Below are positions 6,874-58,984 of a DNA stretch of 64,000 nt, piece after piece. The stretch's first letter is position 1. Every line of letters begins with the position of its first letter. The position numbers and the translations under genes were made by a program. The DNA lies in contig JAUFOQ010000003.1 of assembly GCA_040285855.1 (NCBI GenBank), forward strand, positions 310,001 through 374,000, read 5' to 3'. Under the pieces are notes generated by a model. The model did no database searches and was not told the DNA's origin. It saw nothing but the letters and a program-made list of their open reading frames with translations. The stretch comes from Eukaryota sp. GEM-RC1 (lineage: Eukaryota).

Positions 6874-7767
6874 CAGTCAAAACTGTTTACAGTCCAGCGT
6901 CTATATTTTCAGGACCTGTATTTTCAATGTTCCTCTATCTTCAACAGCCCGAATTTTGTTCCATAACGAAACGTCTTCTGTGTCCTCTCATCGCTACTAT
7001 GTCTTACATATAATGTCAGGTTATCATCTCTTGGTCATTTTTGAAGAATGATTTGATATCTCTCGTTTCACGTTCTTTCCGTTCCAGAATAACATAGGAT
7101 CGTGACTTATCAGTTTTACTACTGTTTGAAGACCAACGAAGATTGTCTTTATGTCTAAGCTATCAATACAACAATAAACTGTGCTTTTTTTCTCTTTGAA
7201 AACCAAGTTCTTCCCTGGAAATTGTACCAAGAACATGAATGGGACAACTATACATCTTAAACAATACTCCCGGTCATGTTCTCATCGAGTTTCTTGGATT
7301 TGCCATAACAGTTGAGAAAACTGTAGAAGTTATAGAAAACGATGGCGTGCTGGAGGCGGTGAAGAAGATCACAATGCAGGAATAGATCTTAGTTTCTTAA
7401 TGTAGAAAGAGGACGAATATGAAACAAATCGTCTCAAGAAACACGCATTAAGGATGGACAATTGGCTGGTTTCTTGCTGAAATACCCTCAAAGGTCAGAT
7501 GAAATGAATCCAAGAAGAAAAGGAAAAGACTATGGGAATATGTCTATGTGGTAATAGGTATACACAAAAGATCATTATGTCACGTTTTGTGGTGATGGAA
7601 TACCACATAGGACAGCTAAACAGTGGGAAACACGAAATGGACCTGTATCTTCAATGTTCTTGTAATTTCAACAGCCGGATCGATTGAAAATATAGACGCC
7701 TCACTGTACAGCGTGAAACTCTATATAGCGTAGGTACATAGAGTCCCGCTATGAACAGTTTTGACTG
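6874..7767. mobile_element. Non-autonomous Tc1/mariner (pogo-like) element
   Basis: 14-bp TIR cagtcaaaactgtt...aacagttttgactg flanked by TA (6872-73, 7768-69). A second, subterminal inverted repeat gcgtctatattttca/tgaaaatatagacgc. No intact transposase. Confidence 0.8.
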
Positions 7768-20534: not shown

Positions 20535-20742
20535 TACTCATGCTCAGCATGAGTTGACTAATTGAAAGTAGCTCTGTCAAATTTGGAAACACTTCCAAGG
20601 TGTATTACTTAATGTATTCCAATGGATTACTATGCGAAACGAGAATATATCAGTACGTTATGGCTATTAATCGGATATAAATCGGAAGTGGAATTTGATC
20701 ACTCCACTTCAGGAGGAAATCAACACTAAATGCTGCCTACTG
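20535..20742 (-). ncRNA. Candidate Fanzor omegaRNA / structured 3' end of element 1 (displaced by a hAT insertion)
   Basis: Lies about 30 nt after the Fanzor stop once the hAT MITE is removed. Stems gaagtgga/tccacttc, ttggaa/ttccaa and actcatgc/gcatgagt. Confidence 0.4.
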
Positions 20743-20750
20743 GTTAAGGT

Positions 20751-21744
20751 CAGGGATCGGAATTTATTGTATTGTATTGTATTGCACTTTTGCAAACTGC
20801 AACAATAAATAATTGTATTGTTAATCAATAATCACAAAATATTGTGAACAATATTGATTCTATTTGTACTGAAAAATATCATTAACTAACATTTGCTAGT
20901 ATGATACAGTCGATTTTACAATGGTCATAGTCAGTGTTAATAATGACATTACTAGTTCATGGATGTACAAAAAGTAATTCACGATCGAAACACCACACAT
21001 CTATTGGTAAAAGCGATGGCTATACAAAATCGTTGAAGAAAAAATGAAATACCAAGAACAATATACACGTATTTCTACACTCTACTTAGTATATGGTCCA
21101 GCAGATTGGCGGTAACAAGTGTTTGAAGGTATATCCCATGAAGGTATATTCTCAAAATTCGTGCATTTGTTAGCTACAAAAAATGTCTTAGGGTGTCATT
21201 CATTCAGAAGCAGACCGTCGCCATTGATATAATGTTTGAAGACAATAAATGCTAAAGAAAAACCAGAATTTCACACGAACTGTGAGAGTATACTAACAGT
21301 AAGAAGCTGCTCGGTGGAAAAGACGAATCTCCATGTACCAGCAACATACTTGTCTAAAATAGAATTCATATAGTGTTCACATTGAAAACACAACAACCAA
21401 TATTTACTATTTATGGCGATAGTTTTGGACACATACATGACAATTTTATTCATTGAGTGGATGGATGTGGGATGCAGCGGTTGATAACTGCTGCATTAAC
21501 AATCGTACTTCACATGGTTGTCTCTAGGAGAAGCAGTACGGTCGTCACAATCATCTCTGACCTCAAAAAGTTGTCACTGATCTGTTTGGATGAGTAGATC
21601 TTAGGAAAGTAGACATGAAAAATAATTTGTATTGTAATCAGTATATTTTATTTATTGTATAATATTGTGGTACTCGAACAATAAATAATTGGGATATATT
21701 GTATTTAAATTATTTGTAGTGCAATTATTTAGTTCCGATCACTG
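20751..21744. mobile_element. Non-autonomous hAT transposon (994 bp)
   Basis: TIR cagggatcggaa / ttccgatcactg (11 of 12 match), exact 8-bp TSD gttaaggt (20743-50, 21745-52), subterminal tattgt/acaata repeats at both ends. Confidence 0.9.
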
Positions 21745-21772
21745 GTTAAGGTAGACTAAAAAGTTTGTAAAA

Positions 21773-24700
21773 CTAAGATCCAGACTGATCGATCAAAACG
21801 TCCACATTTTCTTCACTCTCATCTTCTGTAACGACGTCCTTTTCCTCACTCTCCTCAGTCTCAAGACATTGTACACAACTAATCTCAGAAGTCATTTGTT
21901 CAGATTGGCTTCTGCTGAGAATAGTTGGCCTGGGTAGCCCAGCTAACTTTGCCTTCATGATTTCCATAATGTTGATTCCTGAATTGAAATCCCTGTCCCA
22001 CATAGTAGTACAATACTTACACTTGAGCAAACCCCACGGTTTCACTTCAGCACGTTTCTCAAATTCCTCTTCAGCTTTTCTCCACTCTTCTTGGAAATCC
22101 ATACTGTTTTTCTTACAGTACCACTTCAGCCACTTCTTTTCCGTTTCTTCTTTCGATGGATGTTCGGATCTGGACATCTGATTCCATGATTGTGGGTATT
22201 TTCACCAAATATTCCGTCCTTAGCACACTTAGAGCAACACTTACTAGTTCGGTACTCATCCACTAGAAAAATCTTGAACCCTGCTTTTCTAAATAGCTTC
22301 CTCATTGCTTTTCCTTTAATTGTCGGAATAAAACCTTTCGAGCGAAAAGCAGAGTCGTTCCAATCACCATAACCGATGAGAACTTTATTTGGTTCACCAA
22401 ATTTTTTCTTGAAACGGTTGATCATTTGGTCTTCTCCCCGTTTCTTGTTGGAGTACAACTGAAGTTGTCTCTTTCTAAACCAAGTTGAACTGTATAAATT
22501 CCAAGTTCTCAAGTTGAATAATTCTTTTTGATAGATGTACTCACAAAACTCTTCACGAACACAAGATTGTTTTTGTCCTTGATTGACAGCAGCAGAGAAG
22601 AGATTCATTGCATCTTTACCAGTTACATCAAGACCGGTTGTCGATTCGAGCTTTAGTTGTTCTGTTTTACGGTATTTTTTGAATTTGGAGTCGTAGTTAC
22701 GTTCTCCTTGAGTATAAACAAACTTTTTAAACTTGTCTTTTTCTCTCAGCTTAACATCTTTAGAGACTTGAACTTCAGGTTTGGGTGTTCTGTGGTTTCT
22801 TCTGTTTTTAATGACACGTCCTGATGGCTTTCGTGGTCTTGTGGTTGCATCTTTTTAATTCCTTCTTTTCCAATTCCTCAGCAGACTTTTCTGTGACAGC
22901 AACAATTGGGGCATACTTATTTGGATCAATGCCCACAAGAGTTCTTTCTCTGAGATTTAATTCCTCAATATCGGCATCGGTTAAATCATCCAGATACTTT
23001 TCTTCAGTATACAATTGAATTGTAGAATATTTTTTCCTACTAAATCGTTTCTTTGTAAAACAAGTGAAACTGAAACACCATCAGTTTGGAGTGAGTTTTT
23101 GAAGGAGTAATTTGCCTTAGTAGATTTGGAAGCATCTAGCATCTCTGTTAAGTAGGGAATCCCAAATTTCTGTTCCATATTGGACAGAACGACTTGTGTA
23201 AAATTTCTTTGTTTGTTTTTTTGAAAATTTTCTCTCCAGAAATCTTGGATTCTAAATCTTGAACTTCAGCCATGGCTTCTTTTTTGAAAAAATTACCTAA
23301 AAAAACTTTAGTGTCAACTCTAAAATGCTGTGGAATGACAGTGTCTGTTAAAGGTAGACAATTTGGAATACTGCAAGGATTACCTCTTTCATCAGTTTCA
23401 GCTCTAACAAGTTTTGTTATAAACATTGCATGAGACAACAATTTCATTGGATGGACCTTTTGAGAATAGAATAAGTTTTTATCTTTGACAAATATTGAAG
23501 TAAAATGACTTTCCAGATAGTTTTTAAAATTTCTACAAATATTTCTTTCAGGATTTTCAAATAAGTCAAAATTGATTTCAGAAATTTTACAATCAATAAT
23601 TTCTCTCTCAATTGTTTAAACTGGGACAACAATTCTTGTTTTTCAATCACATGGTCTTTTAACTCTGTTATTCTCGATTTTTTATTCAAACAAATGTTCA
23701 TGGCACGGAAAATGTATTCATGAAAGTGCATTTTCAAATGAGTAGCATAATTTGCACGTACATGTCTTGAATGGTATTTCAAAATTTGATCCATTAATGT
23801 GTAGGAAGGAGCTAGGAAATCGTAATCATCCTCAAAAACTTGAGGTTGTAAATATGTCCATGATGCGACATTTTGTTCGGAGATCATTTCGAGAATTGGC
23901 AAGTAATAGTCCAAACATAGGTGAGCCATCCTACATCTCATTGAGACTAGATCACTAGACACAGTACCTCTTTTCGATGTTCTTTCTACAAGTTCCACAG
24001 TTTCCGAATCTTCCATTTCGATCTCTTCTTCTTCCTGTTCAATTTTGATGTACAATACTTGCATCTTTTCATCACAACCTTGTTTTTCATAGTAGTGTTC
24101 CAATTCACTTCTTTTTGACAAACAGACCACCATAAAGACTCCAGAACCTTGTTTTTTTCTTGAAGAATGTCCAAGTTGGGTAATTCGTGAGGTTTTTCAT
24201 TTATTTGACGATCATATTCATCAATAAAGAATAACTTTAAGAGCATTCTACCTCTGGTATTGATTCTACTAAAATTCTTTCCAATTCTGCGAAATTTATT
24301 AAGATCAGATTGTTGATCATGGGGATTGGGATCTTTGAGAATTTGACGAAGATCACATTTAACAGATTTAACAGCAGGAAGAAACAACATTGTTTGCAAT
24401 TTTTTATCTAAGAAGAAGTCTACTAAGTGACGACATAATTCAACATCGTTAATACAATAACAAGCAAGAGACCTACGGTCTTCATCTGAACAATTCCACA
24501 AACGTTCAATTTCTTTCAACTTGGCTAAAGTAGTTCGATTTCTTAGCACTTCATAACCTTGACTCTTGTACTTAGTTGTAAGACGAACTTTCTCATCTTC
24601 AGATAAAAGATCCAATTTTTGAACTCGTGAACCTTCAAACAGATATGAAACAACATTTCCAATGATCTACCTCCGGGAAATGTATAAGTAGAACGTAAGA

Positions 24701-25468
24701 GTTGATACAAATCGAGAGACCAAAAAGAAGCAAGATTTGACTTCTTAGCCCATCTTTGAAAAAACCACGGACAACAAACAGAACCTTCACCCAGTTTAAT
24801 TAAGAAATTGATTTCCACATCAAGCAGTTGACATCGACGAATAATAAATGGCAAATCAAATGAATTTAAATTGTAACCACAAATGAGTTTTGGCTTTTCC
24901 CATTTCAGGAGATGAATAAATTCAACCAACATTTCCTTTTCATTTTCAAAATGAACAACTTCAGCATTGAGATCATCAGTAAGAACTGGCTTAGAAGTAA
25001 ACAAGAAACTCCTTGACTCTTGTAAAGGATGTTCAAAAGTATTTACAAGTTGGATTCCAATCTGGATGATTGAATCATTTTCAAAGTCAGGTTTCAACTG
25101 ATCTGGTTCTTCAGACAATTCAGAGATTGGTTTGGCTTCTGAATCGAGATCATCGTCTGCAGCATCTTTTTTCTCCGAAGTTTTAGGGAGTTTTACAGTA
25201 TGCAATTCTTTTGCCGAAAGAGATTCAATGTCCAGAAAAGATATAACTCCTCAGCTTCTAGAAACTGCAAAGGAGATTCGGACGGTACAGTTTTCTTCTT
25301 ATGAGCAGGTTCTGTACCAAGACTTGAAAGACTCAATCTTGTACCCAGGGGATCAGAATTGGGATTAGATTGTGGACCTGGATTGGATTCCACATCACCA
25401 TCAGACGTAAGATCAATTTTGAACTGCAGTCTACAAGCAAAACTGACAGAAATTTGCAAAAACGACAC
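21773..25468 (-). pseudogene. 2A peptide - PolB-type DEDDy exonuclease - Fanzor1 fusion (multiple frameshifts in this assembly)
   Basis: In order: GDVESNPGP; FLDIES (ExoI); GYNLNSFD (ExoII); YCIND (ExoIII); VKCDLRQIL; QTDGVSVS; VGIDPN (RuvC-I); IGYGDW; VDEYRTSKCCSKC; LLKCKYC..WDRDFNSGINI (RuvC-III). Confidence 0.88.
25373..25411 (-). other. 2A-like ribosomal skipping (StopGo) motif LTSDGDVESNPGP
   Basis: Exact match to the D(V/I)ExNPGP consensus with the usual upstream LxxxG. Confidence 0.85.
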
Positions 25469-26444
25469 TTCAACAAAATTTCACCACCACCACTTTCAAA
25501 ACCACCAGAACCACCACCGATCCACTGAATTTTACAAGGAGGCAAGTTTGGGGGCTGGAAAGCAGTGTGTTGCCCTGGTGGTTCTATCACCATGCTGGGC
25601 ATGTAAAAATGATAGGCCTGACTGCCAAAAACAACACACATACTCCCATAAAAAACCCTCGACTTCGAAAAACTAAAAAATTTGGATTGAATTGGATCAA
25701 TGACCAAAAATGCCTTCCTTGGGGTTTTGCTTGAACAATGATGCCTTTGAATAGCATATTGCCGCCCGGTCCCACCCAGGCTGTATGGATACGAGATATC
25801 TAAAGAAGTTGCTTCTGTAGAATTCCACCTGATTTGATAGGACGACTTTCCCACCAAAAAGAGGCCTCTCATAACCGTCGAATCAATGAACATCGACATG
25901 TGAGCAGAAAATGGACCATTTTTTATGTTGTTGGTATTTGTAGATGTGTCTACAGTGTCATGTCAGTCAAGACATTTATTGACAATTGTCTTCATTTTTC
26001 ACTTTTCAGTGTCCTCTACATGTACAATTGACCATGAATTTGCTCCTTTCAGTTGTTCTTTAAACAATTCACATCTTTCACTTCACATTTGGAGCCCAAC
26101 ATTTCTTCTCTTCACACACTTTCCTTCTGAAGATGATGTATCAAGATTCGTATTGGTTTTCTGGACACACTTTACACAAGATCACGCTACAAATGTCCCA
26201 CTTCCTTTCTTTTTCTGTTCTTATCCTTTGTTTTGATATAAATAAATGTAGAATTGGACGACACAATTTGGTCTCAATGGCTTCCATGGAGACGTTTTGC
26301 TGGAGGAAGGAGATACCAAGAACATTGAACGAGGCCTCCCAAGTCTCAGTCTTTCATCTTACATCACTCAGTCAACTCTCGTCTTTCCGATGCATCAACA
26401 AACATGTAACATTCCCTTTTCAATATAGATTTATCTTCTCTTAG

Positions 26445-27123
26445 TAGCACTGGGCGTTCAGATATCCGATCCGATCCTATCTGAATTTCTTGTATCTGAA
26501 TCTGATCCGATCCGAACTACCCTTGATCCGAATCTGATCCGATCCGAACTACTCTAATCTGAATCTGATCCGATCCGAACAACTCTAATCTGAATCCGAT
26601 CTGAAATCCGAACAAGCAGAATCTTCTTAGCCCTTTCTTGACTATATGAGAACACCAATATCATATTCTTTATATCACTTAACATCTGAATCATTGTATC
26701 TTGTTTAATGAATGAAATCTGGCTCTGTTTTCAGTTTATTCTTATAGTCTTAGTCAAAGTGTTGTATTCTTGATTATGATATAGCTTAAGGAATCTGTAT
26801 AAATCAAATCACTTGGCAACTTTCTTCAAAGTTGTACAGTTAAATACTATCCATGTTACATTGAATGTGATTGTACCCAGCAAAATCCGCAGTACAAACG
26901 ACAGAACATGTATTAGGTTAGGATCTTTATACAAATGAACACAGTATAAAGATCATTGTATAATTACAACAGTAACAGTCTACAAAAGTTGTATACACCA
27001 CAATTGGTTTCAGATAACGGATATCTGACTTCGATCTGAATCCGAACAATAGGATCTGAATCCGATCCGAATCCGATCCGATCTGAAATCTGAAATGAAA
27101 TCTGATCTGAACGCCCAGTGCTA
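26445..27123. mobile_element. Non-autonomous hAT transposon (679 bp)
   Basis: Perfect 19-bp TIR tagcactgggcgttcagat / atctgaacgcccagtgcta, exact 8-bp TSD tctcttag, dense subterminal tccga/tctga repeats. Confidence 0.92.
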
Positions 27124-29072: not shown

Positions 29073-31651
29073 GTGTTCCATCATAGAGAGGCACTAGCAT
29101 CTGTACACATTTCTGAACTAAATGTTATAGAATTTTGTTTTGATGGAGCAAAATCGTTTTCAAGAAGAACATTTTCAATGTCGTCTGACTACTTAATTGC
29201 TGTTAGCCAACAATTGGTGTTACTTGGCTTTCACCCAGAGCTAAGTATCTCTATTGATACTGAATCGCTTTCTCAAACTGTTAAATCTGTTGTCCCTGAA
29301 GGCGATGAAGTATCAGCATCGGTCTTCAAAGTAATCCGGCTAATCTCTTCTGAAATTGTCTTGGGCCGCTATCAACCAATCCTAGCTGCTCTTGTGAAAA
29401 GAAACCCCATTTGGGCTCATCTTTTCAAGTCCATTGTTAAAGTCACCCTTAGTTTCTCTACCTCTACTTCTTCTCTAGACGTTCGTCACACCCCAGAAGG
29501 CGTTGAACTTATTGACGTTATTGAATTGGATTCTGACCTAACCCCACATCCGATCTGTTTTCTTGCTCCACTACGTGCTTCCTTACCTGCAGCCTGCACA
29601 GACTACTTCAAAAGCCTCTTCAAATCCAAACTTAAAGGTCTTCCTCTCTCCATCAACCTTTCTGAATGTTCTGACTTAGAATCTCCTGCTGCCTCCGCTC
29701 GTGTGGCGGTTGCCCTAGGCGAAGCTGTCGATTCCATTCAGACCGCTGTATTTGCCTGCATCCGAACAGGCAAGGTCTCCCTTCTTGAGAACATCCTCTA
29801 CTCTGACGCCTCTCAACCCTCTGCCATCTCATCTGTTGTCATCACTCCTCTCCCCTTCGCTGACGACGACCAATGGGAACTCGAAATCACTGAAGAAAGA
29901 GCCGACCCTGCTTCAGTTCTACTATCCAAGTGTGGATCTAAACGTATTCTCCACGTCAAACCAGTTCTGGAGGACAACTTTGACGATTCCCCAGTCACTG
30001 TCTTCTCCCCTAACACTTTCTCTTTAAAATACCTCTTATCATGTCATTTATCAGTTGATAAAGAAGTTGTTGAGTTTGACTATGATGTGGTGTTGAAGAG
30101 CTGTATGGAGTCCTTTGGTGAGATGAAGACTGAGGTAGGCTGTTCTAGACCTTTCGAGGTGACTGTGGGAAACCAAGGAACTGTTGATGGTGATTTTCTA
30201 TTTACTGCAGTTCTTTCTAGTTTGTCTGTAGTGTTTTCTGAGCTAGGAACTAAGTTGATGACGAGTTTGGTTCGGAATTTGACTGGGATTGAGCTGTATC
30301 ACGTGGACGAGGAACGTGATATTCCGGTTGAGGTTGTGGTGGAAAGAGCTACGAAGAATGCTGCTGTGATCAAGGACAGACATGACAGAGTCAAGAAAAC
30401 TATTATTGTAACAATTTTCAAATTTCCAAAGAATTCGAAATTAATGCCTGGTTTCTGTTTGACTTCCTCCTTTATTTCCAGAGATGTCTAAAATGATTGC
30501 ATTTGAGTCCCCCTTGACTTTTGATTTGGTAGCTGAGGCTCTCAAGGAGGAACTCGAACAGTTTTCAATGAAATTTAGAGCACTAGTGGGGTTCAGTTCT
30601 ACAGTTGACCTATTCCAATTAGAGAATCCATCGGCAAACTCTCTTTTGGCTGGTTTCTTTGGGATTTCTGGAAGTAATTTAGCTGAAGTGTTGGATGGAA
30701 TTAGTCTATTCGCTCCTCGTTTCTCGGTCAATCAGAAATTGATTGACGAAGACGAAGAAGACGAGTCTTCTGTAGTATTTCAAAATATTCTTGATGGAAT
30801 CAAACTCTTTTCCGAATCATCCTCGAGTTTCTCCACTTTGTCAATCAGTTCAGTCAGTATTGGAGTTTCTTCCTCATCTGACGTGTTTTTTGATCCAATC
30901 TCGTCAACTCTTCATTATTATTGGTCTTTCAATCCTGTTTCTTATCCTTCTAGTTCTGATGTTAAGACAGTTCTTTGTCATTCCGTGAACCTCCCATCAC
31001 TTCCTTCTGTGGATGTTTCCTCTAAAGTGGAAGCACTGAAAGATATTAAAAATTCTGTGAATATTGGCCTTCGTCATTTGGAAGCATATGTTCCGTCTTC
31101 AACTCTTTAAAAACCAGTTTTCAGCTGATTTGTTAACTGAAGGAATGCGAAGGCTGCCTTCATGTGTCAAAATACTACGTCATTACGTTCTTGACTTGGC
31201 TGGCAACAAAAAGTCAAAATTACTGTTGATTTCGGATCCTGAAGATGCTTTCCCAGGTATTTTCATTTTCAATCTTGACAAGGACTCTGTTGTAAACTTT
31301 CATGATGGATCTAAGTGTAAATTTATCCCATTTTCAATGATTCGTATAATTTCTGTTGGTACTATTCAAAAGAAATCTGGAACTGTCTTATCATTAGAAC
31401 TAGCTAATGACAAGACAATCACGTTTTTCCCACCAAAACGACTTTCTAACTCACCAGATCAAGAACGTCATTGTTCTGGTCTGATTACCGAGTTTGGACT
31501 TTTGATTTGTATAGTTAATACCTATTTCGGTGATGAAATTGCCATTGAATTTGGTAAGATTCTTCAAGTCCCTAATAGACATCATGAATACTTTTTTAAA
31601 ATAGAGTTTTTTACATGTAGAATACTGTTTTATTTGTCGATAAATTTATAA
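29073..31651 (+). CDS. Large hypothetical protein, probably one gene split by two frameshifts; possible PH-like C-terminus
   Basis: Three consecutive overlapping ORFs (29073..30491, 30484..31110, 31064..31651) on the same strand. Confidence 0.5.
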
Positions 31652-32330: not shown

Positions 32331-33596
32331 TTGAGTAAGCAAAAATTTGAGGTCTTGAGATGGAATTTACACACTTGTAGCCACCCACCGATGTGTTTCC
32401 GGTTTTTCCTTGTCACTGGCCACTGCACGTGTGAAAAAAACCATGTGCTGCTGTAATTTATTCATATTGTTATTTAATCATTTAAATGTATTAGAAGGTG
32501 TATTTAGAAAATTTGCAAGTGTAAACAATAGCAATGTTGGTGTTGAGAACGAACTGTGACGTACTACTATAGTAGTAGTAAACAAGTTTTCTTCAATCGA
32601 TTCTTTTATGATTGACCTCCACCTTAAGTAGGATATCTTTCTCCCCAAAACATCTTCAAACTAGCATCTTCATGGAACTTGACTTATCTGATGATCGAAC
32701 TCTTGTTTTTTCCGGGTATTACGGCTTCTTTCTCCCCGACGTTGATAGAGCTTCTATTGGGGAGTACGAGTTCTATGGTGGTGCCATTCTTAGAAGTTTG
32801 AACTTTAGTCCAGACCAAGCTCCTGAAACTTTGTTGTGTTTCGGAGTTGAATATACAGATGACTTCCCACATGGTTTTCTGCTTGTTATGCCTAGCTTCA
32901 TATCTCATTGTGTAAGAGGTTTGTTTTAACTTGTAACCTGATCATAGTTGGAGAGGTTACTGATCTAGATAGGTTTCTGTGTGCTCCTTCTCGTTCCTCT
33001 GATATTTCGTGTGATCATATTGATGATCTAGCACTACTTACTCCTAGAATGCCAGATGATGTTGAGATCTCCATGTCTTGATTTCTTTACAACAATTTAG
33101 AAAACATTTTTTTTGCAGCAGTTGTACGGTCATTGGTGATGTTTTGCGATGATTTTGACTTATCTACTTGATACATTGGTATGCATGAACCATTAGTAAC
33201 TGATTAATGAATCGGGATAACCCTTAAGTGTATGCTTTTGTAGACACTCTCTATGTATTCTGTAAATTGTATTCAATATACGCTGCTTGATTACCTTTAT
33301 TATATACGATATCTTCTGCCACAAAGGGACAAAGTAGTTAATGTCTCAGTGATCGAATCAAGTATAAACAATGGGAAAGTTGTCAACGACCCCTTAGTAT
33401 GTCTAACTTTAAAGTCAACTAGTAATGTCTTATCAATTATACACCAAGACAATACATCTATTGAAAGTGTCATTTGTTAATGGTTTAAGCTAAGTTCTTC
33501 CAGATAAAACTCAACGTAATGTCAGTAAAGATATGGATAATGAAAGTACATCAAAAATGCCGAGCCAAGAGGCTGATTTACTAACTTTACTACATA

Positions 33597-34533
33597 TCGT
33601 CGAGGTCCCAATACAAGCAACCTTAAATACTATACAAGCATACCCCTTACTATGCTTGTATTGGAACCTGCTTGTATTAGGGTCCCTTAAAACTCACTTG
33701 TGACTGTACAACTATTGATCACGATAAGTGGACTAACATGGAATTTCAAACCACTTTCTGTCATTCAATATCCTAGTCCATCTAGATCGTCTAATTCTAA
33801 ACAAAAGGTGAACAAAAGTATGTCTCCGTTATCAATTTCTTGATCATTCAAGCGTCTTTATAAAACGCATCTGGTATTGTGCTGCCAATTGACATTATTT
33901 CCATCTTTTTTTTGATCTCTTAATACTTCTTCGGCAACAAACTTGTTTCTCAGGAATTCTTATTACTTCTGCAATTATTCACCATAGTCAACTCTGTAAT
34001 CATTCACATGAATCTTGTTAATAAATTGTGTGAAACCATCAAAGAGATTTGATTTCTGAGGATGTCCTCCGCACGATTGGTTTGTAAAGTCATTGTTTCT
34101 TCAAAAACGACTGTATTCGACAAAATACCAGATGTACTAGTGTAACATATTGAGTCAAGAGCAGAAAACAACAAAGAGTAACAAAGTTCGTTCAACAATA
34201 GTTTTATAGACGAACATATATAAAGACGAATGTATAATATTTTGGTCACGTGTTTGTTAATAAATACATGTACAATGTACAACAAGTTATCTGACACGAA
34301 GTGACATATGTAATTGACCCGAACGAATTGTGTAAAACGATACGAGTTGGCTGAAGTACCAGTACCTATACCGGTAGGTGAAATCAATGAAAAATTCCAA
34401 CGGTAGCCCACTGATGTTTTATATCAATGTTCTGAGCTTTTTGAAGAAACATTAAAGTTTATTTTGTGAAATAATACAAGCATACCCTCTACTATGCTTG
34501 TATTGGAACCTGCTTGTATTAGGACCTCGACGA
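33597..34533. mobile_element. Non-autonomous TA-flanked (Tc1/mariner-type) element
   Basis: 23-bp TIR tcgtcgaggtcc(c/t)aatacaagca flanked by TA on both sides. A ~48-bp hairpin-containing block (atacaagcata...tatgcttgtat...) is repeated directly at both ends. Confidence 0.85.
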
Positions 34534-34679
34534 TACAGACTTACACTAAAATGATGTTAAACTATAGCAATAAAAATTCAACAATAAACTTAAATATATT
34601 TTACAATTGTTCAACAAAATTTAGAAACTTCATAATATTCCAGCATGCTAATTTTTTAAAATTGTTCCAATTTAAACCT

Positions 34680-35711: not shown

Positions 35712-35799
35712 GTATAGTGAATTGGTAATTCTGCTAGTGTGAATCTGCAGATTCAATAATGCTACAGATTCACTGTAAAAAAAATGGCTATGACTATGA

Positions 35800-38737
35800 C
35801 TATGACAATGACAATGACAAATAACTGGGGCTAACTCCTAGACCCCGCTCCAAATGATGCTCCACAATGGTCTTGATGTTGATACATGCGAACTTGTTAC
35901 GATTCCAAACCTTGGCGCTACCATGACATTCTTCCCTACATTCTTGGGACTTGCATCTCAACAAAGCGTGACACTTTACCAGAGGTTTCTTCTCTCTTTT
36001 CCATGGTTTTGGATTACTGATTTCTTTGAACACTTTAACTGGCTTCCAACAAGTAGGACACTTTGAAGACGTGTAACTTTCGTCTACAAGAAGTATGTTA
36101 TAACCATTTCTCTTAAAGAAGTTTCTCCAACCCACACCTCTACTTGATCGGAGGTGTTTTAGGTTCTGCCTCTTATTACCATTGTCACCAAACATCAATA
36201 TACAGTCATTTTTTTCCATCCTTTTCAGTCATTTTTTTCAACAATTTACTTTCTGTTTTTTGAATATGGACGTATCTTTGCATTTTTTGAATGCGCCATA
36301 TCATCAAACAATAGTAATCAATTGTTGATCCAATAACTGTAAGTTTGGAACCCACATAGTCATAGAACGTGTCATAAAGATTTCGAATTTTCTTTGGATA
36401 GTGTTGACTCTTCTTGTTCAACTGTCTTTCCATCTTGGAGAATGAATTCTTTTTTCTTTCCCCTTCTAAACTTTTGATGAACCCTTGACCATCTGGACCA
36501 TTCTGTCTCTGTCAATCTTAGCCACTCATATTGATTGTCTCTTCTTTCTCGGGCTTTTTGTTCAGGAAATGGCCTATTTACTTTCTCTGAACAAAAATAG
36601 AGTAAATCTGTTTTTCCAGGATCAATAAACACTTTTGTTTTCAATGAAAACTCTTCAATATCATAGTCTTGAACATATTCTTCTTTACTGGAGAACTTTG
36701 CACTGTCTGGTTTTAAGGACATTCCAACACAGTCCTCTCTGGTAAGTTCAACACAAGCAGAGAAACCATCAGTTTTAATGGTATTGTTAAACTTATAGCC
36801 TTTCTTTTGAAATGGACGATTAAAATGGAAAAAGTGAGACCAGAATTGATTTTTGTTCAGCAGGAGACATTTTTAAATTTCAGTTTGTGTATTCCAATTA
36901 GACATTTTCTTCTTGACATTCACTTGTTGTGTTGACAAAGTGGAACGTCATATTCCCCAAAAGACCTTGTGTATCTATTTCAAAGAAACCTGGTGTGACG
37001 TGACGAACAATCGGAATTACATTGTAAGCACTTGCTCCTTCCCTTTCATGATATTTATTTATTTGAATAGCAGATTTAATAAAGGGTTGAGGATGTTCAC
37101 GAATTGATTTTAGTAGATATTTAACGACTTTCTTTTTATAAACACCATTAGCATTTTGAATATCAATTGATGGTGGGAATAGAACATCAATAAAATATCT
37201 ATCTCTAAACAATCCTTCAACATAGTCGTTAGTTGCCCACAAAAGTTTAATTTTACCTGCAATGTTCAAACTTCTATTGTTGTCGTCTTGAAGAATTTCT
37301 GTATTACATCTTTGAATGAATTGTTTTGCTTCTGCAGGGGTTTTTGGAATGTCATTTCTGTTACCTTCAAGAAAGAAATTTTTAACTTGTCTAAGTCTCC
37401 AACGGAAAACAGACTGTTCTTTTTTTGACATTTTTTCTCCTTGATCTGTCTTTTGAAAATAAACATTAATAAATTTGTCAATGTATTGAGGATATCGCAT
37501 TTTAATGTTTGTGTCCAAATTCGATTTAATAGTTTCACCAACCATTTTCATAAGTCGTGAGGAATGAGCAGCTGGAAAGAGTGGGATTCCTCCATTGTTG
37601 AGCATAACTTGTTTGTATTCTTCTAAAACAAAGTTTTTCAAGTGTTCATTAAATGCAGTAGCTGGTCGTTGATTACATTATTTAATCTCATGATGTTCAG
37701 CAGAGATGTATCTTAACAGAGTTTGAATATGTTCGACTTCCTTCCTTGTAATTAAAGGTAATTTTGCACCATTCTTATCCATGTGTAATGAAAACAGCTT
37801 CAAACAAAAGGAAGTGCACATTCTAAGTTTGTGAACCAATTGAGCATAATGATCGAGTAATAACGTTAATCGAAAATGTTTGACAATAGACTTTAGTGTA
37901 GTTTTATGTGTAACAAAAGTTGGACGAACGATTATTTGGTTGAAACAATAAAAACAACTTCAATGCTATTACACTATCTTTGGAAGCAATAGTTTAGAAC
38001 TTCTTGAGGTCTTTCAACAACACAATCAATAGGCAATAAGTGGTGAAATTCGTCATAAAAACGTCCTTTAGATTCGTTTAATAAAAACCAACTTAATGAT
38101 CTTAATGACTTTGAATATTTTGAAACAATAAATTGCTTAGCATAAACGTATGAATCACAGAAAATTCTACCAGCCCATTCAGAACAAACATTGTGTCATA
38201 GAGGTGATAAATGAGATTTAGTTTTTCATCTAGCATTGGTTCTGGAAAGTCGACTCCACGTGTAACAATCCTTTTGCCTAAAACAACATTATCGAAGTCA
38301 GTTATGTTAAATCCAGTTAAAACTGAGGGATTTTTATCATTGAAATAGTTTACAAAAAACTATAGTAACTGTTTTTGTTTGTCTTCAAAAAAATCGAAGG
38401 AGGCAGTTCAACATCAGATTCACGAGTCAACTCATAAGTTGCAGCAAAATTGTCATGAAGGTAAAATTGGTCTATTATAAAATGACCAAACACTCCAGAA
38501 ATCATAAAAACTTGTTGTTTTTCAATCCACACTTCTCTTTCTGCAATCACTTTTCATTTTGAGAGATCCATTCTCGTTCTTTCTTTGATCATCCAACTCC
38601 TCTGTAAAGGTCTCTGCAGGGATTTGATCAATTTCTCTAGTTTCAATATCAAAAGACAATATTGAACAATGATTAGTGTTCTTTGGTATTTGGGAATGTT
38701 TGAGAAACTTAACCATTGGTTTTTTAGGAGGTTTCAA
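35800..38737 (-). pseudogene. Second, divergent PolB-type DEDDy exonuclease - Fanzor1 fusion (frameshifted; RuvC-III Asp appears to be Asn)
   Basis: ILSFDIET (ExoI, ~38645); PSVLTGFNITDFD (ExoII, ~38300); NYC/KDSVIALKLF across a 1-nt shift (ExoIII, ~37985); HKTTLKSIV; IKTDGFSA; VFIDPGKTDL; MFGDNG; VDESYTSSKCPTC; HALLRC....C..VWNRNKFACINI. Confidence 0.85.
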
Positions 38738-39045
38738 ATTTTTGTCGCTTTCGCATATGTTACTCTTTTCTGCAATGTACTGTCCAAAAAAAAGTCAATG
38801 ACAGAATCATGAAGCAGTACATTGGGTTTTAGTGTGTCAATTTGATCAGATCTTAGTATAAGATGTCTAGGACGAGATTGTGTTAGAATTCCACGATGTT
38901 GATGTTGTAAAATTTGGGATTTTTGAGAAAATTTTTTTAACTACTGTATAGCATAGCATTGACGATAATGATTGTTCTGAGCTAAACGAGTTTTTTGATG
39001 TGTGTAATAGATTCACCGTTCAACTATGGCGCTTTGGATAAGAAA

Positions 39046-40380: not shown

Positions 40381-41182
40381 ATGAAGAAGAAAATTTTAGG
40401 AATCTTCTGTAATGTTATACGTGTGCAAAATTTTGTTATCTGTGGGCACTTGTTATACATGTGCACTTTTTGTTATCTGTGTGCATCTGGTTTTTCTGTG
40501 ATGTCTTCCAATCATGAATCTTTTGCTACCATCTCACCAACCCATCTTGGTTCGTATTCATCTTCTGAAAAAATAGTCCATGCACTTCAACAGTGGGCTA
40601 AGTCTCTGTGTTTTACTGTCAATAAAACTGGTTTCAAAGAGTCGTTTGGCCATGGTTATCTTGTTTATTAATAAGAAGCTGAAAGAAACAGTTCTTCCAC
40701 AAGGAGAATGCAGATGTACAAAAGACTAATGACTCGGACTCATAGAAAGAACATAGAGCCTGTTCAATATAAAAACCATTTGCAACTGTTTCGAATAATT
40801 GCTTATCACAGAATGGACATTACATCTGTTGAAGAACATATTTTGAATGAAATCAGCAACGAAAATCTTACTAGTTAATTATTTGATTGAATAAACGGAA
40901 GCACAGACCCTCAATCCTCCTGAATCAGAATACTAATATTAAAGAAAAATACTTCTTTTCTGTAACCGATAGGAACTCCTCTCAAAAAGCTATAGTACAA
41001 CTAACTAACCAACCAGACAGCAGAAAGAATCATAGAACAACAGGGAACTCAAAATGAGTAAGCAAAAACGAAATTTCATTAAAGAAACTACCATGAGACA
41101 AGTTAACAACAACAAAGTCATTTCAGTTATCAGAGCCCTACCAATGACGTCATCAGAAAAACACAAAATATTTTAAAATTGA

Positions 41183-43657
41183 TCAACTCCCAATGCTTCC
41201 GACATCCACCACATAAGCCATAAATGTACAAGAAGAACAATCTCTAACAAACACTCGATCAATGGTCCGTTCATCTCCATCTAAGTACAAAACAAGAGAA
41301 TCATTATTACGAGGTAGACACTCGGAAAAGTTCAGATCATTTTGGTCAAAGGTTTGCATTAAATGGGGCTTTTCAGTAACAACAACACAGATTAAGAAGC
41401 GTTCCTTACCCAAAAACATTGGTGGAGCGATAGAGAACACGTGATGAGTGTCTGGGATACCGTCATCAATCCAATGATTGATTTCTGATGAAGGGATCAA
41501 GGGGAAACCAATGAAACGTTTGGCATCAGACTTTAATTGTATATATCGGTATTGCTTAAAGTCAAATAGCTTGAAACATCGATACAACTCAACATCGAAC
41601 AATTTTAAATAATTAGAAACTTCTAAATACTCATTATTTGAATTTGACAATTCCCTAATATTAAACTCATCACTTGAAGGGAAAAGTGGATCTAAAGACA
41701 AAAAGGCACAATTGATTATAGAAAGAGTCAACGCAGAAAGGGAATGTGCTGAATCACTCTCATCATAAGAGGAAACAAAGGGCTCAATCATGGGACACGA
41801 GAAACTCGACTCTTTTTGACCAAAACGTTTCTGAGAGGGTAGCAAGTCCCATGATTCTACGCTCTGAAGGCGATCTAAACCACCATGATAAGAATACGGA
41901 GAAACAGAATCAATTGGGGGAACAACTGGTAGCTGTACTTGGAACTTCCTACCTTCCTTATCATAGGGCTCATCACGATGATTGAGAATTGATTTGGCTG
42001 TGCTGACTCTGTGATTAAATGATGACGTCATGGGAGGAGAAGTCTGGCGAATTCTTTCAAAAACTTTGCTACCAGCTGATTGCAGATTAAATGGGTCAGA
42101 TGATGGTGAATCTTGTTTGACTTTTGAAGAAAGTCCATTGACAGCAACATCAAAAGAGTCAGCATTAACTTGAGGAGTTTGAATCCTACCATTACCTAGA
42201 ATTCCTGTGGGAGACACAGAGTTGACATTAACTGAGTCTACGGAATATCCATAGAGATAACGATGATATTCAGTAATGTAATCAACAAAAATAGACCTAA
42301 GGTTGGGGTCAATAATGTGACGTGATAGATCTAGTTGATCTGTAAACGTGATCTCTTTCCTATTTGGGGATAGAAAGTACTGCAGCTTGGATTCAAAATT
42401 ACCCATATGCTTTTGAGGACTTTTTTGCTTCAAATTCTTGTGTTTTCTCTCGTACTTTGACCGAGTTTGCTTAACCTCACGAGATTTTCTTGAGACTCTC
42501 GTTGACTCCTCCTTTACTACCCCTCTTTCACGATAAGCTGGCTCAAATCTGCTCTGTGAAGGGGAAATTCGAACTTCTGAAGGAGAAACTCTATTTAAAA
42601 ATTGATCTCTTAAAAGTAAAATATTTGGCTCGAGACTCGTGTCCATTTTCTTCAACAAATCATTTTTGATTGATCTAGCCCAATCACGAATATCGGGTGT
42701 AATCACCACGTCGTCAAGGGCAGTCAAATGAGGTAAGTAGATGATTAGAATAGCTCTATAGAGTTGAGCTTCTCGGGCTAATTCACTTTTGTCTTTACTT
42801 CTGTAATAGAACATTGAGAATGAATTTTGGTCTAAATTTAATTCACGTAAATATTTTAAATCCAGAACATTATTTAAAACAGAGAAACAATCGGGAAGAC
42901 CACAGCTTTTTACATAGAGTTTCTTTAAATTAGTTGAAATTGCCATGACACTGTTAATACTTTCAAGACCTTCATTTTCAGAAATATTTAAATTTGTCAA
43001 GTTTGGAAATATGCCGCTCTCCGCAATCAACATGTAAACGTCAGATTTTGACCGTTTCCGACTAAACAACGACTGCAGAGCATTTCGGCTCAAATTCAAA
43101 ACAACTAAACTACTTAAACCATTGAGAATCTCGACAGAAGAAATTCGATTCCCAGACAAATTTAAAACTTTTAAATTTACAGATGATAGCTTGTCCTGCT
43201 TTGGATCATGTAAAAGATTATTACAGAGATACAGCTCCTCCAGCACACTGGAAGACTTTAAAAAAAGACAATTAAGATCAGACACGGCGTTTTCATTGAG
43301 AGACAATATTCGTGAAGACGGGAAGCAGTTAAAAACGTCAACTAAAGAGGCTATTCTGTTGTCATTGAGTGACACGTGATCTATACGACAGGGTCTGATG
43401 GGAAGCCCTGTTACTGAGATGAGATTAGAGTTAGCGGAGAAGAAGGATAAATGAGGGAAGAGATCAAGTCCATGAAGAGAGCGTATGGAACAGTTATTGA
43501 TGGAGAGAGACTTGAGATTGAAGTTATGTGAGAAAAGTTGAAGATTGACATTAGATAAGTGGGAATGGTCGAGTGACAAGGTTTCGAGGGGCAATTGAGA
43601 CAAACGGGTCCAATCAGAGGTCTCAATATACTTTTGGACCAGTTCTTGGTTCTCCAT
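41183..43657 (-). CDS. SDS22-like LRR protein with LRR cap and unknown C-terminal domain
   Basis: LxxLxLxxNxI repeats, cap YRAILIIYLPHLTALD; 824-aa intact ORF. Confidence 0.8.
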   Translation of the reverse strand: MENQELVQKYIETSDWTRLSQLPLETLSLDHSHLSNVNLQLFSHNFNLKSLSINNCSIRSLHGLDLFPHLSFFSANSNLISVTGLPIRPCRIDHVSLNDNRIASLVDVFNCFPSSRILSLNENAVSDLNCLFLKSSSVLEELYLCNNLLHDPKQDKLSSVNLKVLNLSGNRISSVEILNGLSSLVVLNLSRNALQSLFSRKRSKSDVYMLIAESGIFPNLTNLNISENEGLESINSVMAISTNLKKLYVKSCGLPDCFSVLNNVLDLKYLRELNLDQNSFSMFYYRSKDKSELAREAQLYRAILIIYLPHLTALDDVVITPDIRDWARSIKNDLLKKMDTSLEPNILLLRDQFLNRVSPSEVRISPSQSRFEPAYRERGVVKEESTRVSRKSREVKQTRSKYERKHKNLKQKSPQKHMGNFESKLQYFLSPNRKEITFTDQLDLSRHIIDPNLRSIFVDYITEYHRYLYGYSVDSVNVNSVSPTGILGNGRIQTPQVNADSFDVAVNGLSSKVKQDSPSSDPFNLQSAGSKVFERIRQTSPPMTSSFNHRVSTAKSILNHRDEPYDKEGRKFQVQLPVVPPIDSVSPYSYHGGLDRLQSVESWDLLPSQKRFGQKESSFSCPMIEPFVSSYDESDSAHSLSALTLSIINCAFLSLDPLFPSSDEFNIRELSNSNNEYLEVSNYLKLFDVELYRCFKLFDFKQYRYIQLKSDAKRFIGFPLIPSSEINHWIDDGIPDTHHVFSIAPPMFLGKERFLICVVVTEKPHLMQTFDQNDLNFSECLPRNNDSLVLYLDGDERTIDRVFVRDCSSCTFMAYVVDVGSIGS

Positions 43658-44527: not shown

Positions 44528-45708
44528 TTTTTGATTTTTTAATTTCATACTTTTTTGTAATCGTTTTTCTTATTTTTTGTTGTATACATATTCCAAATTG
44601 TGCTGCTCCTACAGTAGTTCCTATCATTTACGTTGAGAACTACAACAAGTCTCAATTCTAAACACCAATGAACAACTTCGATTTTTCTCTCTGTTAAACA
44701 ACGATAGACCGTATTTTATCATCTATTTATGTTGTAGAATGTATTTGTCATTTTGTTCCTTTAACCGAGCAATTATCAGCAAAACCACAATCTTCATCAA
44801 CACGAACAACAACAAAAGAGATACAAGATGGATGGAAAAAAGGAAACCAGGTTGCATCACTGTTGTTAAGTTAATTATCAGTGTTCAGTTTCTAGTCAGC
44901 TGAATGGCACCATGTGGAGTTGAACTCCGTTTATGATCAATAGATGAATATTTTAAATTTGCTGCAAGCAACCACCAACAGTACGAACTATAACACAGTT
45001 TGATAGACATTGAGATTCAGTCCTCTTTCGGGTCTATGGATTTCACCGATAACAGTGAATCTCTTGTCAAAATTTTGTTAGACAACAACGATTTGTCTCT
45101 TTGGTAATCAAAGTCCTAGAAAATACTTCTCAGTACGTTACAGGGAACATCTGAAACCGTATACTCTCATCTAAATGTACAGTTTGTATCAATTTGTTCC
45201 TTTAACCGAACAGTTTTCAACAACGCTACAGTCTTCATCAACACGAACAACAACAGAATGTATGAAAAAAGGAAACCAGGTTGCATCACTGTTGTTATGT
45301 TAATTATTGGTGTTCAGTTTCTAGTCAACTGAATGGCACTATGTGGAGTTGAACTCCGTTGATGAATATTTTAAATTTGCTGCAAGCAACCTCTGTACTA
45401 CCAACAGTACGAACTATAACACAGTTTGATAGACATTGAGATTCAGACCTCTTTCGGATCTATGAATTTTATTGATAACAGTGAATCTCTTGTCAAAATT
45501 TTGTTAGACAATAACGATTTTTCTCTTTGGTAATCAAAGTCCTAGAAAATACTTCTCAGTATGTAACAGGGGACATCTAAATCCGTATACTGTCATCTAA
45601 ATGTACAGTTTGTGTCAATTTGTTCCTTTAACCGAATAGTGATCAACAACACTACAGTCTTCATCAACACGAACAACAACAAAAGAGATACAAGATGGAT
45701 GAAAAAAA

Positions 45709-56700: not shown

Positions 56701-58984
56701 TAAAATATCTGTGCATTGAACGAAACAACGCAAACGTTAACCTGCTCAACGAAAAATTACAAGACGGATGGAAAAAAGGGAAACCAGGTTGCATCACTCT
56801 TGTTGTGTTAATAATTGGTGTTCAGTCTCTAGTCAGCTGAATGGCACCATGTGGAGTTGAACTCCGTTTATGATCGACAGATATTTTAAATTTTGCTGCA
56901 AGCAACCTCTGTACTACCAACAGTACGAACTATAACACAGTTTGATAGACATTGAGATTCAGACCTCTTTCGGATCTATGAATTTCATTGATAACAGTGA
57001 ATCTCTTGTCAAAATTTTGTTAGACAATAACGATTTTTCTCTTTGGTAATCAAAGTCCTAGAAAATACTTCTCAGTATGTAACAGGGGACATCTAAATCC
57101 GTATACTGTCATCTAAATGTACAGTTTGTGTCAATTTGTTCCTTTAACCGAATAGTGATCAACAACACTACAGTCTTCATCAACACGAACAACAACAAAA
57201 GAGATACAAGATGGATGGAAAAAAAGGAAACCAGGTTGCATCACTGTTGTTAAGTTAATTATCAGTGTTCAGTTTCTAGTCAGCTGAATGGCACCATGTG
57301 GAGTTGAACTCCGTTTATGTTCGATAGATGAATATTTCAAATTTTGCTGCAAGCAACCTCTGTACTACCAACAGTACGAACTATAACACAGTTTGATAGA
57401 CATTGAGATTCAGTCCTCTTTCGGGTCTATGGATTTCACCGATAACAGTGAATCTCTTGTCAAAATTTTGTTAGACAACAACGATTTTTCTCTCTGGTAA
57501 TCAAAGTCCTAGAAAATACTTCTCAGTACGTTACAGGGAACATCTAAAACCGTATACTCTCATCTAAATGTACAGTTTGTATTAATTTGTTCCTTTAACC
57601 GAACAGTTTTCAACAACACTACAGTCTTCATCAACACGAACAACAACAGAATGTATGAAAAAAGAAACCAGGTTGCATCACTGTTGTTATGTTAATTATT
57701 GGTGTTCAGTTTCTAGTCAGCTGAATGGCACCATGTGGAGTTGAACTCCGTTTATGTTCGATAGATGAATATTTCAAATTTTGCTGCAAGCAACCTCTGT
57801 ACTACCAACAGTACGAACTATAACACAGTTTGATAGACATTGAGATTCAGTCCTCTTTCGGGTCTATGGATTTCACCGATAACAGTGAATCTCTTGTCAA
57901 AATTTTGTTAGACAACAACGATTTTTCTCTCTGGTAATCAAAGTCCTAGAAAATACTTCTCAGTACGTTACAGGGAACATCTAAAACCGTATACTCTCAT
58001 CTAAATGTACAGTTTGTATTAATTTGTTCCTTTAACCGAACAGTTTTCAACAACACTACAGTCTTCATCAACACGAACAACAACAGAATGTATGAAAAAA
58101 GGAAACCAGGTTGCATCACTGTTGTTATGTTAACTATTGGTGTTCAGTTTCTAGTCAGCTGAATGGCACTATGTGGAGTTGAACTCCGTTTATGTTCGAT
58201 AGATGAATATTTCAAATTTTGCTGCAAGCAACCTCTGTACTACCTACAGTACGAACTATAACACAGTTTGATAGACATTGAGATTCAGTCCTCTTTCGGG
58301 TCTATGGATTTCACCGATAACAGTGAATCTCTTGTCAAAATTTTGTTAGACAACAACGATTTTTCTCTCTGGTAATCAAAGTCCTAGAAAATACTTCTCA
58401 GTACGTTACAGGGAACATCTAAAACCGTATACTCTCATCTAAATGTACAGTTTGTATTAATTTGTTCCTTTAACCGAACAGTTTTCAACAACACTACAGT
58501 CTTCATCAACACGAACAACAACAGAATGTATGAAAAAAGGAAACCAGGTTGCATCACTGTTGTTATGTTAATTATTGGTGTTCAGTTTCTAGTCAGCTGA
58601 ATGGCACCATGTGGAGTTGAACTCCGTTTATGTTCGATAGATATTTTAAATTTTTGCTGCAAGCAACCTCTGTACTACCAACAGTACGAACTATAACACA
58701 GTTTGATAGACATTGAGATTCAGTCCTCTTTCGGGTCTATGGATTTCACCGATAACAGTGAATCTCTTGTCAAAATTTTGTTAGACAACAACGATTTTTC
58801 TCTTTGGTAATCAAAGTCCTAGAAAATACTTCTCAGTACGTTACAGGGAACATCTAAAACCGTATACTCTCATCTAAATGTACAGTTTGTATTAATTTGT
58901 TCCTTTAACCGAACAGTTTTCAACAACACTACAGTCTTCATCAACACGAACAACAACAAAAGAGATACAAGATGGATGAAAAAA

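Follow-up and report, generated by a model that had tools for sequence, protein, structure and literature searches.

A Fanzor1 nuclease joined to a polymerase-type proofreading exonuclease domain in a multicopy gene of soda-lake protists

We analyzed a stretch of 64,000 nucleotides of contig JAUFOQ010000003.1 (GCA_040285855.1, positions 310,001 to 374,000), hereafter the window, and found a multicopy gene of soda-lake protists in which Fanzor1 is joined directly to a DNA-polymerase proofreading exonuclease domain. The window holds two such Exo-Fanzor1 elements, both on the minus strand, as are all of their features given below, and near-identical proteins of the first carry the NCBI label Eukaryota sp. 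GEM-RC1. GEMRC and RCL are isolates of Skoliomonas, free-living metamonads (PMC11316075). Judging from the predicted proteins, the fusion is real, old and diversified in at least two Skoliomonas isolates, because the junction lies in one frame, sister copies read through most of the frame breaks of the window copy and the second isolate has unbroken proteins.

Results

Exonuclease and Fanzor1 parts of the first element

The fusion junction of the first element (24337..24459) consists of the ExoIII helix, 24 residues and then the first Fanzor1 strand. ExoIII (YCIND, 24459-24445) and the Fanzor start (VKSVKCDLRQIL, 24372-24337) are 24 residues apart and both lie inside the stop-free frame 23986..24666. 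This agrees with a preliminary description, made from the letters of this DNA, which had placed the two in one open reading frame; the other motifs that it named are likewise all present on the minus strand. The junction aligns with residues 5-20 of stand-alone Fanzor1 proteins, and its spacing is 24 residues in four families and 20 in lineage D, to which the second element of the window belongs.

Ahead of the junction, the first element carries a PolB-type DEDDy exonuclease domain (24400..25250), for which 3'-5' DNase activity is predicted from the sequence. The four acidic residues of ExoI (FLDIES, 25238-25221), ExoII (GYNLNSFD, 24878-24855) and ExoIII are all present, as is the ExoIII tyrosine, and frame 24546-25250 matches PF03104 (DNA_pol_B_exo1; E 3.1e-19, 69.8 bits against a curated cut-off of 23); the family-B type and the retention of the acidic residues, both claimed earlier, are thus borne out. 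A PDB search with the sister copy P0011 returned family-B polymerases only (51 of 51 exonuclease matches are family-B DNA polymerases), the best being human Pol delta (E 2.7e-9), to which ExoII and ExoIII align. The Atlas model of P0011 resembles PolB exonuclease clusters at a template-modelling (TM) score of 0.54-0.65; the assigned exonuclease fold derives from Pfam, the PDB matches and this model, rather than from the AlphaFold model described below. The domain has ExoI D-x-E, ExoII YN..FD and ExoIII YC..D in common with family-B DNA polymerases (Pol delta, archaeal PolB, giant-virus PolB; PF03104), and its modelled fold appears alike, but Exo-Fanzor1 is without their N-terminal, palm, fingers and thumb domains. 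Pfam found no PF00136 polymerase domain in eight pieces of the window, as expected from the earlier statement that no palm lies in between, nor in P0025, P0173, P0188, P0202 or P0019. With regard to the donor, Pol delta and archaeal PolB are about equal by score, and Pol delta ties with Nucleocytoviricota PolB by structure. Two frame breaks, near 25239 and 24658, fall in the exonuclease domain.

The Fanzor1 coding region (21773..24384) contains seven frame breaks. This nuclease part is Fanzor1 by sequence and, via the model of a homologue, by fold, and RNA-guided cleavage dependent on a target-adjacent motif (TAM) is predicted for it. A profile of ten unrelated stand-alone Fanzor1 proteins matches seven successive frames, collinearly, from 24666 down to 21776, which upholds the identity first read from motifs. 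The published Fanzor1 pattern, D-X(125,275)-[TS]-[TS]-X-X-C4 zinc finger-X(5,50)-RD (PMC3627910; here and below, papers are cited for the accessible parts of their text), is seen as D at 22927, T-S about 226 codons on, CxxC at 22236-22225, CxxC at 22021 and RD five residues later; it is read across two frame breaks in the window copy and is unbroken in P0025. Fanzor1 proteins are also marked by an alternative RuvC-II glutamate six residues before the zinc finger and by TDG in the WED domain (PMC10711439), and the first element has both, the glutamate as VDEYRTSKCCSKC in VDEYRTS-CxxC (22263-22225) and the other as TDGVS (23085-23071). GDW lies at 22368-22360, CxxC-WDRD at 22021-21989 and the stop codon at 21773. 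RuvC-I is DPG "near exclusively" in Fanzors (PMC10711439); the first element has DPN (GIDPN, 22933-22919), as does SpuFz1 in the alignment, and lineage D has DPG.

Exo-Fanzor1 therefore shares TDG in WED, the RuvC-I aspartate, the C4 zinc finger and RD with known Fanzor1 proteins (SpuFz1, PDB 8GKH; GtFz1, 9CER; PpFz1, 9CF0; PMC3627910, PMC10432273, PMC10711439, PMC11423790), and also the alternative glutamate and a eukaryotic multicopy setting. In contrast to them, it adds an N-terminal PolB exonuclease, an upstream 2A motif, an optional Ulp1 domain and inserts in REC and RuvC, and measures about 1,200 residues from 2A to stop, compared with 638 in SpuFz1.

The fold evidence (WED, REC, RuvC and TNB) comes from the homologue P0025, not from the window's own protein. 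An AlphaFold model of P0025 residues 274-1440, built from a 100-row alignment, has a mean pLDDT (predicted local distance difference test) score of 68 and a predicted TM score of 0.67, with the Fanzor part mostly at pLDDT 70-97. All seven Foldseek matches at E<=0.001 are Fanzor1 structures (SpuFz1 at TM 0.74-0.76 by target), and Fanzor2 and Cas12 follow far behind; the C-terminal part thus models as RuvC/TnpB-type.

Homologues in two isolates

Sister copies P0001 and P0011, 96% identical to the window, each show a single predicted protein that spans the 2A motif, ExoI, ExoII, ExoIII and the Fanzor start. PF03104 and a Fanzor RuvC likewise occur together in P0019 (1182 residues, GEM-RC1 label), which over the junction is collinear with P0011 at 28% identity. 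In a profile search of 1.84 billion representatives, P0025 (1473 residues) matched profile positions 17-1071 in one stretch. Together with P0173 (1479 residues) it represents the second isolate, TZLM3-RCL, and both proteins keep all catalytic motifs of both domains. Both are unbroken and follow the window element in order at 30-37% identity, P0025 from 25244 to 21833. The homologues hence encode exonuclease and Fanzor in one predicted protein rather than as separate genes. One family A protein under the GEM-RC1 label, P0036, jumps from REC straight to the RuvC insert and lacks about 1 kb relative to the window, being either an internally deleted copy or the product of a predicted intron.

Grouping of the predicted proteins at >=85% identity points to at least seven Exo-Fanzor1 families in the two isolates, and the gene is multicopy, spread over several chromosome-size contigs. 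Under the GEM-RC1 label there are 4 (family A), 3 (A2), 14 (B), 3 (C), 25 (E), 6 (F) and 12 (D) proteins, and under the TZLM3-RCL label 4 and 4; these are lower bounds that count predicted proteins, often fragments, and not elements. Families A, RCL-A and D have intact exonuclease residues, as has the fragment P0040 for ExoI and ExoII. These families are only 19-39% identical, yet D-x-E, the ExoII aspartate and the ExoIII Y..D are kept, in both deep lineages, which suggests long selection for catalysis. Families B, E and F keep W-F-x-R-W, GGR-x-L-x-N and a junction of exactly 24 residues. Family E inserts one or two Ulp1/C48 domains with H-D-C residues between 2A and exonuclease, and families C and E end in a CCHC knuckle; in P0052, P0104, P0182 and P0183 (GEM-RC1), which have 2A and either one or two Ulp1/C48 domains, the exonuclease is dead and Fanzor1 closes with a CCHC knuckle.

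A quick IQ-TREE tree of the Fanzor part (610 columns; 52 rows, comprising 7 Skoliomonas proteins and 45 of 90 full-length non-Skoliomonas proteins) placed A, B, C and E in one clade and D in another. Each clade has an SH-like approximate likelihood-ratio support of 100 and spans both isolates. They stand on long branches and are not sisters; a tree constrained to unite them is worse by 3.2 log-likelihood units, a difference that the approximately unbiased test does not reject (p-AU 0.38). Ten of the best 150 of 1175 profile matches carry the exonuclease by profile, and all ten bear Skoliomonas labels, whereas the other matches have at most 120 residues before the Fanzor match, except two fragments, one of them label-checked. 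Among these best 150 matches, which missed lineage D, as did the exonuclease profile, no Exo-Fanzor1 was found outside the two Skoliomonas isolates. Scans of viral and metagenome contigs, weak tests that need near-exact peptides, found no relative.

Frame breaks in the window copy

Alignment to sister proteins at 85-97% identity mapped nine frame breaks in the first element, near 25239, 24658, 24153, 23601, 23219, 23125, 23033, 22857 and 22139. At least one sister protein reads through seven of the nine, and no in-frame stops were found within the stretches aligned to sister copies. Four breaks sit at A-runs of 5-7 and the other five at shorter runs, of 2-4 bases. Three near-identical 2.9-kb inserts in another part of the window served as a control: their alignment has 10 columns with substitutions and 7 with indels, and every one of the seven indels sits in a run of >=5 bases. 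Assemblies under the GEMRC and RCL labels were made from Nanopore R9.4/9.5 reads and polished with Illumina data (PMC11316075). Since the control indels all lie in runs, some breaks lie in A-runs, no stops are aligned and the assemblies are of Nanopore origin, the breaks probably reflect long-read assembly errors, and in the cell the copy is probably whole or almost whole. Two observations speak for the less likely alternative, that this copy has truly decayed and was recently inactivated. Near 24153 and 22857, every compared copy with the same label is out of frame with another run length, and decay does occur, as the second element of the window has a real-looking in-frame stop. Programmed -1 frameshifting at A-AAA-AAC near 24153 was considered and rejected, since three sister copies differ in run length and the second isolate is without the break.

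A 2A motif upstream of the exonuclease

About 45 codons upstream of ExoI, the first element carries D-V-E-S-N-P-G-P (25373..25396; with the preceding G, 25399-25373), which conforms to the 2A/StopGo consensus GD(V/I)ExNPGP (PMC3708506); ribosome skipping is putative. It is the sole match in six frames of the window (chance expectation 3e-5) and is in frame with the exonuclease in P0001 and P0011. Eight of 184 proteins, from three families and both isolates, have the motif at the N-terminus, and it stands at the same place in P0025 and P0173 of the second isolate and in P0052, P0104, P0182 and P0183. No in-frame ATG was found between the preceding stop and the 2A motif of the first element, and gene models disagree upstream of 2A.

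2A sequences have been described from RNA viruses and non-LTR (long terminal repeat) retrotransposons, where they are found N-terminally in open reading frames; the motif alone is insufficient, a suitable upstream tract being needed, and many motif-bearing sequences are inactive (PMC3708506). As in the 2A-bearing APE-type elements Ingi, L1Tc, CR1 and L2 (PMC3708506), the motif of Exo-Fanzor1 lies near the N-terminus of a single long open reading frame with the enzyme domains after it. The downstream product here, in contrast, is an exonuclease-Fanzor without a reverse transcriptase or APE domain. In L1Tc and Ingi, a ribozyme like that of hepatitis delta virus lies upstream of 2A; one was sought by analogy before the 2A motif of the first element and is not supported, as Rfam gave only chance-level matches.

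A second element of lineage D

Motifs, the Fanzor1 profile and relatives identify a second Exo-Fanzor1, of lineage D, at 35800..38760. Its motifs are ExoI LSFDIET (38659), ExoII GFNITDFD (38314), ExoIII (38000-37961), the Fanzor start (37914), TDG (36773), IDPG (36629), VDESYTS-CxxC (36087) and WNRN (35907). It is about 22% identical to the first element in the exonuclease, has several frame breaks and one in-frame TAA near 37680, and its relatives under the GEM-RC1 label are 80-90% identical. In the second isolate, lineage D is unbroken (P0188, P0202, P0201), with proteins of 1096-1281 residues carrying PF03104 and Fanzor. The 2A motif was not found in the lineage D proteins examined. P0201 (TZLM3-RCL) is a 2027-residue gene model with a DEAH helicase upstream of the exonuclease-Fanzor; the helicase, present in one of four cluster members, is probably a gene-model join.

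The third RuvC residue of lineage D is asparagine in both isolates. We ruled out that this marks a dead site, because GtFz1 also has a RuvC-III asparagine and SpuFz1 D606N is more active (PMC11423790); by analogy, the asparagine is compatible with activity. A 15-bp hairpin at 35739..35773, 27 nt past the stop and behind a short hexamer repeat, is a candidate omega-RNA scaffold (z -3.4, 1 of 200 shuffles; strongest of 111 windows scanned, z -6.5). The 3' hairpin and hexamer repeat recall Helitron2/Helentron elements, an identity that we do not claim, as no Rep/helicase and no matching ends were found. The second element ends directly ahead of a host RIIa-domain gene.

Flanks of the first element and setting of the window

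The 3' non-coding stretch of the first element (21630..21772), where the omega-RNA scaffold and the right end would be expected, has only weak stems (folding z -0.6 and -1.8). Stretches 21677-21752 and 20739-20815 have a 15-mer and a 12-mer in common, in swapped order (local chance of the 15-mer 0.0014), and the element may extend to about 20.7 kb. Four consecutive hairpins at 25730..25860, 350-480 nt upstream of 2A, are a possible, uncertain 5' leader (z -3.25, 0 of 200 shuffles; picked after scanning 111 windows). Rfam gave no gathering-level match in the window and only chance-level matches 5' and 3' of the first element. A 19-bp inverted repeat at 26445/27123 was dismissed as the ends of the first element since it belongs to a separate miniature inverted-repeat transposable element (MITE). 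In this MITE (26445-27123), which we take to be hAT-like, the 19-bp terminal inverted repeats are perfect, the target duplication TCTCTTAG is 8 bp long and the internal repeats are ATCCG-rich. Short stretches between imperfect 24-36-bp inverted repeats at 33595-34535, 6888-7708, 30950-31403 and 41141-42034 are probably further MITEs.

Introns are scarce in the window, a piece of eukaryotic DNA with a GC content of about 36%. Its host genes include a prenyltransferase beta subunit, Ssl1 and leucine-rich-repeat proteins, and the frames of single-copy host genes are unbroken up to 824 codons. At 44740-64000 lies a tandem array whose units, about 24-25 in number and 426-451 bp long, are 87-100% alike; a near-identical insert of about 3.1 kb breaks it three times at the same place. 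Rfam and tRNA searches of the array gave no match, and the insert encodes a long coiled-coil-rich protein without a Pfam, PHROG or NCBIfam match. Either a satellite that received an insert site-specifically or the amplification of a gene could account for the array.

Discussion

We identified a natural fusion of Fanzor1 to an end-processing enzyme, which in the Fanzor literature was not found by title or abstract start. The word "exonuclease" is absent from the main texts of PMC10530073, PMC10432273, PMC10711439, PMC3627910 and PMC10691335 and of the 2026 review PMC13565253, and the readable text of the supplements of PMC10530073, PMC10432273 and PMC10711439 contains no "exonuc", DNA_pol_B or PF03104 and, among the places listed and within the first 400 characters of sequence cells, no 2A motif. 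Repbase, patents, subscription papers and the supplementary domain figure S1B of PMC10530073 lie outside this scope. Within it, the earlier suggestion that the fusion had gone undescribed stands. Since Fanzors often carry various extra domains (PMC10530073), an uncited catalogue entry may exist.

What might the exonuclease do? The preliminary description had proposed resection of cuts (for deletion-biased or homing repair), degradation of targets or maturation of the guide 3' end. Resection that produces 3' tails for homologous repair needs the opposite polarity to that of a 3'-5' exonuclease, and PolB proofreading domains prefer unpaired 3' ends. Because of this polarity, plain resection is unlikely, whereas trimming of a 3' tail, or a block to re-ligation, fits better; the other two proposals are kept as rivals below.

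We tentatively propose, at a probability of about 0.45 and by analogy, that the exonuclease trims the non-homologous 3' tail of the Fanzor cut and so aids homing. The guides of Fanzors reach into the 3' flank, and elements are restored when TnpB cuts empty sites (PMC13565253). Cleavage by SpuFz1 falls after base 16-17 on the non-target strand and after base 20-21 on the target strand, leaving 5' overhangs (PMC10432273). In Exo-Fanzor1, a guide read from the element's right flank would direct cutting of the empty site, and the non-target strand would be cut, as by SpuFz1, after base 16-17 past the TAM, that is, beyond the insertion point. Given those cut positions and a guide from the 3' flank, the TAM-side end would bear about 16 nt of right flank as a displaced 3' single strand mismatched to the donor, which holds the element's left end there, and this tail would have to go before priming. 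A tethered 3'-5' exonuclease preferring single strands would remove it, also blocking simple re-ligation, and host repair would copy the element in. The 2A motif would free the exonuclease-Fanzor from a short N-terminal peptide, or tune output. The role of exonucleases in T4 intron homing offers a precedent: the 3'-5' exonuclease of T4 DNA polymerase (gp43) and DexA affect homing efficiency, and I-TevI likewise cuts away from the insertion point with an exonuclease-dependent outcome (PMC2988022).

Several observations weigh against this proposal. Most or all of the exonuclease catalytic residues are gone from families B, E and F, which retain the domain; B and E, whose RuvC motifs look intact, also have the largest numbers of proteins (14 and 25, compared with 4 for A), which argues that spread can do without catalysis. 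Homing by stand-alone Fanzor1 and TnpB needs no exonuclease domain. In the P0025 model, the exonuclease part is mostly at pLDDT <50, so its placement relative to the displaced strand is unsupported by the model. Around the first element, no terminal repeats, target-site duplication or TAM were found, its flanks contain no transposase, a difference from known Fanzor1, and no convincing omega-RNA follows its stop; hence there is no empty-site model.

An unlikely rival is that the exonuclease makes the cut irreversible or destructive, so that targets such as empty alleles, competing elements or viruses are lost or repaired with deletions. The anatomy would be the same as for homing, the recessed 3' ends of SpuFz1-type 5' overhangs would be shortened further by a PolB exonuclease, and fusing TREX2 to the SpCas9 N-terminus increases both editing and the size of deletions (PMC13370227). 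However, mutating the empty site would destroy the homing target, to the element's disadvantage, neither a guide array nor a guide matching a virus was seen, and the Exo-dead families are numerous.

Those same families bear on the rival that we place next, also as unlikely, in which the domain is mainly a nucleic-acid-binding or structural module or captured cargo, its catalysis incidental, of an element that gathers accessory domains such as Ulp1, a zinc knuckle and the exonuclease, in the manner of many eukaryotic transposons. B, E and F keep the whole domain, its motifs and the 24-residue junction without the acidic residues; Ulp1/C48 is present in E and the CCHC knuckle in C and E, and rotifer retroelements carry DEDDy cargo of unproven function (PMC5408684). 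The conservation of four acidic residues at 19-39% identity in both deep lineages argues against it.

It is improbable that the exonuclease instead matures the guide by trimming either the omega-RNA or the element transcript at its 3' end. DEDDy enzymes do include RNA 3'-processing nucleases (PMC5408684), and Fanzor guides come from a 3' transcript that needs shortening (PMC13565253), but the PDB matches are without exception exonucleases of family-B DNA polymerases, which act on DNA, and Fanzors without an exonuclease mature guides in yeast. Finally, that a polymerase fragment and a neighbouring Fanzor were joined by chance, mis-assembly or gene prediction is most improbable: the window copy does have nine frame breaks, and the long unbroken proteins are automatic gene models, with introns not visible, that can over-join, as P0201 probably does with its helicase, but the junction lies in one stop-free frame of the window DNA, its spacing is conserved over families and isolates, and a second, unrelated-looking window element has the same domain order.

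Related combinations are known from other systems. Dada transposons of Laccaria and Ectocarpus likewise have a catalytically complete DEDDy domain in a DNA-cutting enzyme, with proposed 3'-end processing; there, however, the enzyme is a DDE transposase with the DEDDy domain inside, and the domain was compared with the WRN/RNase D/PolA type, not PolB (PMC3706591). Rotifer retroelements possess DEDDy open reading frames (PMC5408684, PMC6338049). In engineered TREX2-SpCas9 (PMC13370227), as in T4 homing, the outcome of a site-specific cut depends on a 3'-5' exonuclease, but that exonuclease is a separate host or phage protein or part of an artificial fusion, whereas Exo-Fanzor1 is a natural single chain. 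Extending the homing proposal, Exo-Fanzor1 might be a transposase-free, one-protein "cut, trim and home" mobile gene whose exonuclease was perhaps captured twice and whose Exo-dead families live off active ones, a picture that we consider doubtful.

Homing has been shown for bacterial TnpB and only inferred for Fanzor. That Fanzor1 is naturally fused to an end-processing enzyme draws attention to what follows the cut, and the presence of 2A in a Fanzor gene raises the question of how these genes are translated. The system has built-in controls in its Exo-active and Exo-dead families, in RuvC-III Asp versus Asn and in unbroken genes of a cultured protist. Fusions of Cas9 and Cas12 with 3'-5' exonucleases are engineered to increase editing, and Exo-Fanzor1 appears to be an evolved single-chain version on a eukaryotic scaffold. 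If "cut, trim and home" is true, no other RNA-guided nuclease would have come before it in nature with end processing built in.

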